In this document: positions 6,993 to 15,186 of the stretch, one piece after another
Numbering within the stretch: the stretch's first letter is position 1
Layout of the letters: every line of letters begins with the position of its first letter
Origin: a virus
Taxonomy: Duplodnaviria; Heunggongvirae; Uroviricota; Caudoviricetes
Virus record (IMG/VR): IMGVR_UViG_3300029305_004950
Coordinates: 189,430-253,429 of that record
DNA: 64,000 nucleotides
Strand: one strand, 5' to 3'
Translations under genes and position numbers: made by a program
Notes under the pieces: model-generated
Databases searched by the model: none
The model's input: the letters and a program-made list of their open reading frames with translations, nothing else
Told to the model about the DNA's origin: nothing

Positions 6993-8264
6993 ATGAAAAA
7001 CACTAATGATAAGAGTTCTTATAAGGAGATTGCTAGAGATTATAGAGATATGATCGAGGGCTTAAACAATAGTTTGAGCAAACCTTATAGAATTAAAACG
7101 AAACTCGCAAACTTTGAGAAATGCCTGTTTAAACACTTAGTAAATAATGGAAATGGTGAAGATATTTGTTCTGTACTTATTTCTATTGCTGAACAAACTG
7201 GTATTCCTACTGAACTCATCAGTGATAGCGAAATTGAAATGAATGTTTTCATTAATGATGTAGATGATGAAATTGAGATTAATGAAGAACTTGAAATGAA
7301 TGAATCTGTAGAAGAAAAAGAATCTTCTACTAATGAAAAGAAAGAAAAAGAAAAGGAAACTGTTGATTTCAAGGACATCTTTGAAAAAGGTTTTAATAAG
7401 ACCGTTAAGAATAATCCTGTAACTTCTAGATCTGAAGTAACTAGTCTTGTAAGCCAGTATTATGATATTCAGGCATTTAGAATTGCTGGTGGTAACCGTC
7501 AGTTCCAGCTTGATAATAGTGGAACTAGTGTAGCAACTAATAACAATAATAATCCAAAAAATATTTCCTTTGCATATGTTAATGCTGGATTCAAGGAAAT
7601 TGAGGGAATTATTGTTAAGTGGCTGAAGGATTATGTTGAACATGATAAAATGGGTCAATGGCTTATTGCTACTAAGGGTATTGGTCCTGTTCTAGCTGCA
7701 GGTTTGCTTTCTTATATTGATATCTCTAAGTGTCAAACTGCAGGTTCTATTTGGAGATATGCAGGTTGGGAAGGTCATCGTGCTCCTCGTAAGAAGGGTG
7801 TGAAGCTTGACTATAATCCTAAGTTCAGAGTTCTTTGTTGGAAGTGCGGTGAAAGTTTTCAAAAGCTTTCTGGTACTAAAAAAGATAAGGATGGTAATAC
7901 TATTTATGAAAATGGTAAGCCTGTCTATAAGTCTTATTATGGTGGTCTTTATGCTGAAAAGCTGAAGTTCTATATTGATAAGAATGAAGCTGGTGGTTTT
8001 GCTGAAGCAGCTAAGCTTGCATTGGAAGAAAAGAACATTCAGAATGTGAAGACTAGAGCTACTTATGAATCTGGTAAACTTCCTATGGCTCATATGATTG
8101 CTATGGCTAAGCGTTATGCTGTTAAGATCTTCCTTTCTCACTTGTTCGAAGTCTGGTATGAGTATGAGAATGGGGTTAAGCCTCCTAGACCCTTTGTTGA
8201 AGTTCATCTTGGTCATGTTCATATCATGGAAGCACCTAATAAAAATATTCTTGGTTTGAAGTAA
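6993..8264 (+). CDS. TIGR-associated Nop-domain protein (TasA-like, IS110-related) with N-terminal extension
   Basis: Coiled-coil LVSQYYDIQAFRIAGGNR, IS110/Nop core TKGIGPVLAAGLLSYIDISKCQTAGSIWRYAG and C-terminal HMIAMAKRYAVKIFLSHLFEVW. No RuvC (DEDD) or HNH motif. A 36-nt dual-repeat array follows directly. Confidence 0.85.
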   Translation: MKNTNDKSSYKEIARDYRDMIEGLNNSLSKPYRIKTKLANFEKCLFKHLVNNGNGEDICSVLISIAEQTGIPTELISDSEIEMNVFINDVDDEIEINEELEMNESVEEKESSTNEKKEKEKETVDFKDIFEKGFNKTVKNNPVTSRSEVTSLVSQYYDIQAFRIAGGNRQFQLDNSGTSVATNNNNNPKNISFAYVNAGFKEIEGIIVKWLKDYVEHDKMGQWLIATKGIGPVLAAGLLSYIDISKCQTAGSIWRYAGWEGHRAPRKKGVKLDYNPKFRVLCWKCGESFQKLSGTKKDKDGNTIYENGKPVYKSYYGGLYAEKLKFYIDKNEAGGFAEAAKLALEEKNIQNVKTRATYESGKLPMAHMIAMAKRYAVKIFLSHLFEVWYEYENGVKPPRPFVEVHLGHVHIMEAPNKNILGLK

Positions 8265-8291
8265 GAGGATTTGATGTAATTTCTTTAATTG

Positions 8292-8793
8292 TTTTAATCA
8301 CTACTTAATATAGTATCATACATCAATAATGAATCATCCATAAAAACAGTATCACAAAAATGATAATGAATCACTTATAGACATTCGTAACATGGTGAAT
8401 AAATGAATCAATGAGCATTATAGTATCATTAGCTGTAAATGAATCATCATCAGAAATTTAGTATCAAGGTCATCTAAATGAACCATACTGCGATATAGTA
8501 TCAGTTGATATAAGTGAATCAATGAAGATTATAGTAACAGAACAGGAATAAATGAATCATACCCAAATATAGTATCAGTATCACTGAATGAAATTATTCA
8601 AAAAAATCAAAGGAGGATTTTAGAATTTCATCTATATAACAAAAAATCACGACGACCTATAGTATCAATAACCCGAAATGAATCAATATTAAAAATAGTA
8701 TCAACTTTTAAAAATGAATCAAGCTCTTCAAAAGTATCATATTATTTCAATGAATCAAAGTAGTTTATAGTATCAGATACGCATAATGAAAAA
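8292..8793 (+). ncRNA. TIGR-type dual-repeat guide RNA array 1 (12 clear units plus 1 degenerate unit)
   Basis: Alternating AATGAATCA and ATAGTATCA repeats separated by variable 9-nt spacers, period about 36 nt. Confidence 0.88.
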
Positions 8794-8831
8794 AAGAGGA
8801 TAGACTTATTTAAAGTCTATCCTCTTTTTTT
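8790..8831. terminator. Bidirectional terminator closing array 1
   Basis: AAAAAAGAGGATAGACTT/AAGTCTATCCTCTTTTTT inverted repeat. Confidence 0.85.
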
Positions 8832-8869: not shown

Positions 8870-10750
8870 TTAGTCAGAATTATTATCAGGATTTTTTATA
8901 TATGTATATACATAATTTCCACAATCCCAAATTCTATAATAATCTGTTTTATCCATAATTTCTTTTTCTGTTAAATTTTCATCATAATACTCTGGAAACA
9001 GTTTTTCTAATTTATGTTTTTGGAATTTAACTCTATTCTCTCTATTTGTAAAATTAGTATAAAAATAGCTAGGTTTACTTATATCATCTAATTTAAATCC
9101 AGTATTCTCGTATAGTCCACCTATAGACCATCTTCTATCAGCATATGTTATAATGCTATTCCATTCATAGTTTTCTTTAAAATACTTAAATAATTTATCA
9201 AATGCACCATATACTTGATATTCTATATCTATAGCAAATCTAGATAATTCATAATCATGATTCTTATTAAATCTAGGTTTACAAAATGTCATAACCGCTA
9301 CTAGTCTATGTTCTTCTTCATTAATAGGATACCATAAACCAAGTTTTATGTTAGCTTTATCTTCACCTTGAATGTGATTTTCATTAAGAAATTGATTCTT
9401 AGTAGTTGAGTCTAGTTCTTCTATATAACATTTACTAGCTCTAATTTTAGTATTGTTATTACAACCAAGAATATGTTTTATCTTAGATTTTACTATATTC
9501 TGTTTGAAATTCCATTCATCTTCAAAGATATGAATTAAACGAATATTCTGTAAACGACAGTTTACAGTTTTATTAAGATGATAATCCTTATCAGATATAT
9601 TCTTTTCACAATGCCAATATAATCCATCAAATTCTATAGCCAAGTTTCTATCTGGAATATAGATATCTAATTCTTTACCATTTAGAATAGTTCTGTTGTT
9701 TTCAGTTATTTCACCATTATAAATGGATTTAATAAAATCCATGATTTCTTTTTCACCATTACTATAACCTTTAATAAGAGAACAATCAGCACATCTACTC
9801 TTTTTTGATGTAAAATGATGAGGTAATACTTCATACTCATTTCCACAAGTATTATGTCTCATTTTTATTTTTACATTAGAGTTTATATACTTTCCTATAA
9901 CAGTATATTCATCTCCAACTTGATCAAAAACCTGTTTTTCAAATTCTTCTTGAGTTAAGGTTGCATCTTTTATTCTACAATCTTTACATCTAGTACCTTG
10001 TTTAAAACAATGAGGAGTTATATATAGATCATCTTTACCACAGATATTGTGTTTCATTCTTACTTTAGTATCAGCATTTACATATTCACCTATAACAGTA
10101 TATTCATCTCCAACTAAATCAAATACTTCTTTCTTATATCTTTCAGTTGTATATGATGAACATATTTTACATCTAACTCCACCTGTAGTAAAAGCATGAG
10201 GTGTAGTTTCATATGTCTGACCACATACTGAATGAAACATCGTTATAGTTTTATTATCTTTAATAAAAGGTGTAGTTGGAATATATTCATCACCGACTAA
10301 ATCAAATACTTTTTTTCTAAATTTTTCATCCTTTTCTTTTTGTAAACATATTTTACATCTGTTTTTTCCTTTTTTAAAACTAGCAGGAATTATTGGATAA
10401 ATTGTACCACATACATTATGTTTTACATCTATATCAGTATTGTTATTTTTGTAAATACCTAATACAGTATACTCATTACCTACTAAATCATAAACTTCTT
10501 TTTTAAATTTTTCTGTAGTACTTTTAAGATTTCCATTACATTTAGGACATCTAGTACCTTTTTTATTTTCTCTATCTTTAAAATGACAAGGTGTTACATA
10601 CCAGTCATCTTTACCACATACATTATGTTTCATTCTAATTTTTGTTTTATCATTTACATATTCACCTATAACAGTATACTCATCACCTACTAAATCATAG
10701 ACAATTTTCTTATATTCTTCAGTATTGGATTTGGGCCACATATATTTCAC
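8870..10750 (-). CDS. Free-standing homing-endonuclease-like protein: 5 Zn-finger repeats, Vsr/PD-(D/E)XK nuclease, GNAT/Mom-like C-terminal domain
   Basis: Repeats DLVGDEY...HNxCG...RCxxC; ELDIYIPDRNLAIEFDGLYWH; LSRFA...YADRRWSIGGLY. Confidence 0.75.
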   Translation of the reverse strand: MKYMWPKSNTEEYKKIVYDLVGDEYTVIGEYVNDKTKIRMKHNVCGKDDWYVTPCHFKDRENKKGTRCPKCNGNLKSTTEKFKKEVYDLVGNEYTVLGIYKNNNTDIDVKHNVCGTIYPIIPASFKKGKNRCKICLQKEKDEKFRKKVFDLVGDEYIPTTPFIKDNKTITMFHSVCGQTYETTPHAFTTGGVRCKICSSYTTERYKKEVFDLVGDEYTVIGEYVNADTKVRMKHNICGKDDLYITPHCFKQGTRCKDCRIKDATLTQEEFEKQVFDQVGDEYTVIGKYINSNVKIKMRHNTCGNEYEVLPHHFTSKKSRCADCSLIKGYSNGEKEIMDFIKSIYNGEITENNRTILNGKELDIYIPDRNLAIEFDGLYWHCEKNISDKDYHLNKTVNCRLQNIRLIHIFEDEWNFKQNIVKSKIKHILGCNNNTKIRASKCYIEELDSTTKNQFLNENHIQGEDKANIKLGLWYPINEEEHRLVAVMTFCKPRFNKNHDYELSRFAIDIEYQVYGAFDKLFKYFKENYEWNSIITYADRRWSIGGLYENTGFKLDDISKPSYFYTNFTNRENRVKFQKHKLEKLFPEYYDENLTEKEIMDKTDYYRIWDCGNYVYTYIKNPDNNSD

Positions 10751-14429: not shown

Positions 14430-15130
14430 TTTTAATCACGTAGGCGAATAGTATCAAAGGTACACAATGAATCAGATGTATTTAAAGTAACATGTTGGTA
14501 TAATGAATCATATAATCCTATAGTATCATCCTCTCATAATGAATTAAACGTATTAAAAAGTAACAGAGGAAATTAATGAATCAATACTACAAAAAAGTAA
14601 CAGTTTATTCTAATGAATCAGTGTAGACGATAGTAACAATGCTAATTAATGAATCAGATGTATTAAAAGTATCACATGGTTATAATGAATCAATATAGTG
14701 AATTAAGTATCAGTAGCCAGAAATGAACTATGTAGTGCAATAGTAACAATTGGAAATAGTGAATCATACTATAGATAGTATCATAGAAATGTAATGAATC
14801 ACTGAATCTAATTTTTAGTAACAAGACTTACTAATGAATCATAGGAGGTCTTAAAGTATCAAAGATATGTAATGAATCAACTTGAATTGATAGTATCATT
14901 GAATGGGAATGAATCATAGCTTTGAATAGTATCAAATATATGTAATGAATCACTGAATCCCTAACCTGTATCAAGGGGATGAAATGAATCACAAAAACTG
15001 ATAGTAACACATAAAATCAATGAATCATATAGTGTAATAGTATCACACTTGCTAATGAATCAATGATTTTAACAGTATCATATGCGGCTAATGAATCATG
15101 TCTGTGATTAGTACCATATATCTTTAATGT
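14430..15130 (+). ncRNA. TIGR-type dual-repeat guide RNA array 2 (19 units, no adjacent tas gene)
   Basis: Same AATGAATCA and ATAGTA(T/A)CA repeats with 9-nt spacers and about 36-nt period as array 1. Confidence 0.88.
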
Positions 15131-15138
15131 AAAACAAA

Positions 15139-15186
15139 GATTGGATAAAGACTTTAGTTAGTCTTTATCCAATCATTTTTTTTTTT
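15139..15186. terminator. Bidirectional terminator closing array 2
   Basis: Stem GATTGGATAAAGAC/GTCTTTATCCAATC followed by a T run. Confidence 0.85.

Follow-up and report, generated by a model that had tools for sequence, protein, structure and literature searches.

Which DNA is addressed by a phage-encoded, RNA-guided protein that carries no nuclease, and what might be achieved by binding it? The question is raised by a locus at 6993–8831 of a 64,000-nt stretch of viral DNA ("the window"; bases 189430–253429 of the 319,626-bp virus record IMGVR_UViG_3300029305_004950), where a gene for a Tas protein is followed by an array of short dual guides. The record is a single virus contig with a CheckV completeness of 100%, which bears out the jumbo phage named in an earlier reading made without database searches (the sequence-only reading). 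What that reading observed is confirmed, and its interpretation is supported in every part open to checking. On sequence comparison and structure modelling, the locus is a genuine dual-repeat TIGR-TasA system of the published family; the best overall explanation, which we consider probable, is a TIGR-TasA of a virulent AR9/PBS1-like jumbo phage that would bind foreign DNA without cutting it. The system itself is of an already published kind; what is new is a candidate for the natural target of a TIGR guide, the initiator tRNA-fMet gene.

Faure et al. 2025 (PMC12045711) described TIGR arrays as alternating edge and loop repeats of 8–12 nt with spacers of about 9 nt, truncated terminal edges and a terminator, and TasA as a Nop-domain protein devoid of a nuclease, the commonest Tas type and one frequent in phages; TasA is known from published work to bind 36-nt tigRNAs, and 6,685 TIGR arrays were catalogued by Xu et al. 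2026 (bioRxiv 10.64898/2026.09.09.750476). TIGRFinder lists 65,635 dual-repeat tigRNAs. All array and protein features that define TIGR-TasA in the former study are present at the locus. The protein-coding part comprises the following features, where pLDDT is the predicted local distance difference test score:

6993..8264, + strand: tas gene, TasA type, 423 aa (P0001), an open reading frame (ORF) with ATG at 6993 and stop at 8262–8264
6993..7223, + strand: N-terminal three-helix domain, residues ~7–69, pLDDT >90 both within the whole-protein model and folded by itself
7236..7346, + strand: acidic disordered linker, residues 82–118, pLDDT <50
7365..8261, + strand: Tas core, residues 125–423, two long helices and the Nop domain, the region common to 121 homologs

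Judged by sequence searches and the predicted model, the 423-aa product is a Tas/Nop-fold protein. A phmmer search of the PDB returned TasR (9mty, 2.6e-12) and TasH (5.5e-7), residues 139–416 matched phrog_4285 (8.7e-38), and Pfam gave only a sub-threshold match to PF02371, the IS110 C-terminal domain (E 0.27, residues 225–258). The AlphaFold2 model, made with an alignment of 65 homologs, has a pLDDT of 84 and predicts long helices (146–175 and 191–216) at the coiled-coil position; among the Foldseek matches in the PDB, all 11 with E ≤ 0.001 were TasH or TasR chains, and ranks 12–22 were occupied by the bridge-RNA recombinases IS621 and ISCro4. This comparison agrees with the Nop/IS110-like assignment proposed from the sequence, and the absence of RuvC and HNH domains, also proposed then, held as well: no Pfam nuclease match was found in the Tas protein at E ≤ 10, no match to the IS110 DEDD/RuvC N-terminal catalytic domain was detected, and residues 1–125 are made up of three helices and the disordered acidic linker. 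As no part of the protein resembles RuvC or HNH, it belongs to the TasA type. The relationship to the IS110 recombinases IS621 and ISCro4 concerns the RNA-binding domain, indicated by the weak PF02371 match and by Foldseek; unlike them, the locus has no DEDD/RuvC domain, bridge RNA or element ends, and has a guide array instead.

The best matches in sequence and fold, SpTasH of Salicola phage CGphi29 (PDB 9W03, 9W04, 21KL) and TaTasR (PDB 9MTY), share with the present system the two-strand targeting geometry, but differ in carrying HNH or RuvC domains, and the structural-alignment identity is 15–23%. The counterpart of H296, a residue that SpTasH uses in processing, is His408, a histidine in 63/65 homologs, whereas Y289, the tyrosine of the SpTasH Y/H dyad, aligns with Phe401 (F in 40/65 and Y in 24/65 homologs; the pairwise alignment is weak over this stretch). 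Self-processing of the tigRNA by the Tas protein therefore appears plausible but is not assured. The 121 homologs share residues 125–423, are mostly 270–350 aa long, and several are encoded on contigs of 200–300 kb. The sole isolated phage with a homolog is Microcystis phage Mvi-JY20, and that one is distant (27% identity); scanning viral contigs with a protein pattern brought up no relative.

The N-terminal domain distinguishes the protein from FpTasA of Flavonifractor plautii and from MbTasA, which, compared by their published descriptions, are alike in the nuclease-free Nop fold, edge and loop repeats, 9-nt spacers, phage setting, truncated terminal edges, terminator and the presence of arrays both beside and away from tas; compared with these two, the three-helix domain and the acidic linker are additional. 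Out of 11 homologs aligned, only P0002 and P0003 align with this domain, its motif LSKPYRIKTKL being conserved with P0003. It gave no Pfam match and no Atlas lead, is not a nuclease fold, and in the fold search nothing rose over the helical-bundle background (best Z 7.0; E > 1 in the AlphaFold database, AFDB). A confidently folded extra domain that few homologs possess might suggest that TasA only does the targeting for a two-part cutting system and that its N-terminal domain or linker recruits a nuclease in trans, for example one of the many HNH homing endonucleases of the phage, the gene for one of which lies convergently just downstream:

8870–10750, − strand: HNH homing endonuclease, 626 aa (phrog_559, 2e-167), converging on the terminator of array 1

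We regard this as improbable. Nothing points to an interaction; the 626-aa protein is similar to multi-copy endonucleases of AR9, PBS1 and phiR1-37, and such HNH genes are multi-copy homing elements in AR9-like phages, located in three places per record; relatives with the same gene order have no N-terminal domain, and the published TasA proteins work with no partner.

The guides are encoded in three arrays with the same anatomy, namely the edge repeat AATGAATCA, the loop repeat ATAGTATCA and 9-nt spacers (A after the edge repeat, B after the loop repeat):

8292..8592, + strand: TIGR sub-array 1a, 5'-truncated edge, 8 guide units, 3'-truncated edge
8593..8640, + strand: gap between the sub-arrays, 48 nt, hairpin not significant (z = −0.5)
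8641..8790, + strand: TIGR sub-array 1b, 5'-truncated edge, 4 guide units, 3'-truncated edge
8789..8831, + strand: rho-independent terminator of array 1, −25.3 kcal/mol, z = −8.6, T-run after the hairpin
14430..15131, + strand: TIGR array 2, 19 units, repeats as in array 1, different spacers
15139..15186, + strand: terminator of array 2, −22.2 kcal/mol, z = −6.9
Genome 266954–267066, outside the window: TIGR array 3, 3 units, repeats as in array 1

Array 1 begins with an edge repeat, truncated at its 5' end, at 8292, 28 nt past the tas stop, and ends at the terminator, both as the sequence-only reading had them; the 12 spacer pairs it listed were obtained again by an independent parse. What it had described as a degenerate unit proved to be the 48-nt gap, bounded by a 3'-truncated edge (8587–8592) and a new 5'-truncated edge (8641–8649), so that array 1 consists of two sub-arrays, one with 8 units and the other with 4. 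The span flagged in that reading does contain tas and array 1, but the system is larger, arrays 2 and 3 lying beyond it. In total 34 guides (8 + 4, 19 and 3) are encoded, and tblastn found one tas copy in the 319,626-bp genome; one protein therefore serves all of them. Truncated terminal edge repeats occur in sub-arrays 1a and 1b and in array 2, whose start is identical to that of array 1 (GTTTTTAATCA). On either side of array 3 stand the arms of a perfect inverted repeat of 16 nt (GTTTTTGAATTAAAGA / TCTTTAATTCAAAAAC), which could close it into a long-range stem. The gap region of array 1 (8587–8649) starts like a true array end, with AATGAAA, an A-run and AAAGGAGGA, compared with AAAGAGGATAG at the actual end (8785–8803); it may represent a decayed terminal edge repeat and terminator copy left by duplication or fusion of arrays.

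The regularity of the arrays is far beyond chance: there are 25 instances of GWATCA-N12-GWATCA in the window, all inside arrays 1 and 2, where shuffles lead one to expect 0.07. The unit of about 36 nt given by the sequence-only reading is the prevailing but not a fixed length: in arrays 1 and 2, 18/31 units have 36 nt within a range of 35–40, and half-units have 18 nt in 48/62 cases, the variation being due to 0–4 extra bases between a spacer and the following repeat; such variation within one locus is a difference from the published dual-repeat systems. Within the repeats, G4 and A9 are present in 64/64 and C8 in 62/64, and in both exceptions to C8 a T is found, with which a G-U pair would be retained. 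These conserved G4, C8 and A9 positions fit the box D / box C pairing of the TasR structure, in which the repeats carry UG...CCA box motifs, although box C is here UCA or ACA instead of CCA (NCA closes each of the two repeats) and box D reads UG in edge repeats and AG in loop repeats. Related spacers (≤3 differences) were not commoner than in shuffled sets (12 vs 9.8 and 11 vs 9.4), giving no sign of spacer duplication, and an Rfam scan of the window gave no match.

The single clear target came from the search with A joined to the reverse complement of B, the search for 18-mers named in the sequence-only reading. This geometry, in which one strand of the target reads A and then revcomp(B), was derived by us from the TasR cleavage products, as it is the sole arrangement that yields the 8-nt 3' overhangs left by TasR. 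The guide concerned is the first of sub-array 1b:

8650–8676, + strand: guide 9, spacer A = CGACGACCT (8650–8658), loop repeat, spacer B = ATAACCCGA (8668–8676)

Spacer B followed by the reverse complement of spacer A is identical at 18/18 positions to nt 36–53 of the initiator tRNA-fMet gene. The 18-mer has 24 exact matches in public viral contigs of 30–72% GC content, and all 24 fall at one place in one conserved sequence; ARAGORN predicted a tRNA-Met(CAU) at this site in the 6/6 loci checked. The matched tRNA bears the hallmarks of bacterial initiators, the C1/A72 mismatch and the GGG/CCC anticodon stem. The probability that any of 34 random guides would match the initiator tRNA is ~6e-8 (34 × 120 / 4^18). 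In E. coli, the exact 18-mer is found at nt 36–53 of 3/3 genes of metZWV, between mltA and amiC, and over 5,426 genomes the median copy number of the matched initiator tRNA is 4. The initiator tRNA of records labelled Enterococcus, Listeria and Staphylococcus departs from this sequence at 1–2 positions; these lie opposite nt 2–3 of spacer A and adjoin its 5'-most nucleotide, at which a mismatch is tolerated by SpTasH. An exact target is also present in an initiator-like tRNA-Met of another large phage record, IMGVR_UViG_3300032321_002024 (262,603 bp, 30% GC; below, G001), which carries 25 tRNA genes, including two for tRNA-Ile(UAU), is classed as a provirus in IMG/VR and has no Tas homolog.

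The orientation of the two spacers bears on the kind of nucleic acid that would be bound. Spacer B runs in the sense of the tRNA, and spacer A is antisense to the adjoining 9 nt (tRNA-fMet nt 45–53), so that the two spacers can both be paired on duplex DNA only; such an arrangement could not have come from the decay of a tRNA gene. The kinship of Tas proteins with Nop5 and the complementarity of spacer A to the tRNA could suggest that guide 9 acts on the tRNA itself in the manner of a box C/D small nucleolar ribonucleoprotein, but this is very improbable, as spacer B is in the tRNA sense and abuts the site of spacer A, TasR is inactive on RNA substrates and no methyltransferase partner is evident.

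A further possibility, raised by Faure et al., is that TasA bends an attachment site in a tRNA gene and thus helps a phage integrase. It agrees with tRNA genes being classic integration sites and with the bending of the target by TasR, of ~180 degrees, but no tyrosine or serine recombinase was found in the 100%-complete phage genome by searches in which control genomes gave matches, which argues against a role as integration helper. AR9-like jumbo phages, moreover, are virulent, and we find this possibility hardly credible.

For the binding of DNA without cutting, the following sequence of events can be proposed by analogy with Tas systems already characterised. Transcripts of the three arrays, with their 34 units, would be cleaved inside the edge repeats to give guide RNAs of ~36 nt; a TasA dimer would hold each guide by its boxes D (xG) and C (NCA); one DNA strand would be paired by spacer A, and the adjoining 9 nt of the opposite strand by spacer B; and, since TasA has no nuclease, the complex would stay bound and block RNA polymerase or other machinery. 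Action by binding, as the sequence-only reading proposed, is modelled here on what was demonstrated by Xu et al. 2026 for another TasA, MbTasA, a reversible guide-dependent transcriptional repressor that shifts target DNA in an electrophoretic mobility shift assay.

The DNA so bound would be foreign. Searches of the 34 guides against the 319,626-bp genome in both geometries, tolerating up to 2–3 mismatches and using mismatched A/B pairs as the null, found no match at 0–1 mismatches, and at two mismatches the counts equalled the null (4 vs 2.9 and 4 vs 2.6); a self-targeting role was therefore rejected. A region in which two of the chance two-mismatch matches are located (genome 124440–124720, outside the window) has a translation that resembles, by eye only, an RNA 2'-phosphotransferase of the Tpt1/KptA-like kind. 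The tRNA-fMet gene, which is found in bacterial chromosomes and in many large phages, is absent from the source phage, none of whose 8 tRNA genes is for Met. Since the genome of the phage itself is not what its guides address, and guide 9 fits a gene that the phage lacks, TasA would act on foreign DNA, either the host chromosome or rival phages that carry tRNA genes.

The match of guide 9 establishes a predicted binding site, not a purpose. That guide 9 is functional and programs TasA onto the tRNA-fMet genes of the host chromosome or of rival large phages is a reading we hold tentatively, giving it a little less than even weight. The match could instead be a by-product of the origin of spacers, random host or phage DNA having been copied into the array with no selected role, while other guides do the real work; this we consider unlikely, though by no means negligible. 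It is consistent with the fact that 33/34 guides have no assigned target in searches that could detect conserved genes only. The guide was also not found in other TIGR arrays: the pattern A-N{8,12}-B had 60 metagenome matches and 1 viral match, read as chance, and in the 4 groups inspected none lay in an array.

Two related contigs bear on the same point from opposite sides. One of them, L001, represents a related phage with a Tas protein of 63% identity and the shared gene order ligase–DUF4314–tas; its array (1195–1790) has identical repeats and 14 unrelated guides, none of which matches tRNA-fMet, a point in favour of a by-product. The other, L055 (an ENA ERZ27248457 contig of 4416 bp), is a strain variant with 100% identity across 700 nt that take in array 1 and its flanks, so that guide 9 is unchanged despite a diverged Tas protein (97% identity, 413 vs 423 aa, a 10-residue deletion in the acidic linker). 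This argues against a by-product, as does the absence of the target gene from the phage, given its presence in relatives of comparable size. If guides were drawn at random from a host genome, one of 34 would, by our estimate, lie in an ultra-conserved gene with a probability of ~3%; this figure tells against a by-product, and it has also to be entered among the reservations that follow.

Several further points weigh against the best overall explanation. Expression, processing and the binding of RNA and DNA are all carried over from relatives that are 15–25% identical, and with Phe401 in the place of the dyad tyrosine the predicted processing is, as said, not assured. None of the arrays has a promoter that could be recognised, sigma-70-like sites being no more frequent than in shuffles; in L001, a terminator is located between tas and the array, which therefore probably has its own promoter. 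Only 1/34 guides has a clear target. The phage itself needs initiator tRNA, and tRNAs are stable, so blocking the transcription of tRNA-fMet within one infection may achieve little.

As regards the remaining guides, target searches made with no host genome detect ultra-conserved genes only. Guide 1a-3 has an exact 18-mer in four near-identical viral contigs of one lineage (L027–L030, ~39% GC), in a small ORF adjoining the gene for the ribonucleotide reductase beta subunit, and guide 1a-6 has one in a single 79.6-kb contig (G006 4808–4825, ~39% GC), at the end of a 171-aa ORF. Two control 18-mers made of mismatched pairs had no exact match in viral contigs; with so few tests the two matches are suggestive as targets and indistinguishable from chance. 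The exact 18-mer of guide 2-1 was absent from viral contigs, and its three scattered matches in 596 Gb of genomes, in unrelated phyla, were read as chance and rejected. None of the records G001, G006 and L030 is matched by several guides, and no guide matches the E. coli rrn operon at ≤2 mismatches.

The genomic surroundings are those of a large phage. Near tas lie genes for a beta subunit of a multisubunit RNA polymerase, an NAD-dependent ligase (37–40% identical to ligases of Staphylococcus and Bacillus jumbo phages), a dCMP deaminase and HNH homing endonucleases, and by their sequences these neighbours mark the phage as an AR9/PBS1-like jumbo phage. Apart from the target of guide 9, the locus is another TIGR-TasA of a jumbo phage of the AR9/PBS1-like type.

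TIGR-Tas systems are well described biochemically, and a perfect match of a guide to a universally conserved gene gives a concrete lead to a natural target; an identifiable natural target of one guide is a difference from the published dual-repeat systems, and in the TIGR-Tas papers searched the phrase "tRNA gene" is absent and no natural target is on record. Since the metZWV genes of E. coli carry the exact site of guide 9, targeting of tRNA-fMet genes is directly testable in that bacterium. Should guide 9 be functional, a TIGR guide would for the first time have a natural target assigned to it, and this would point to host take-over or phage–phage exclusion as what TasA natively serves.

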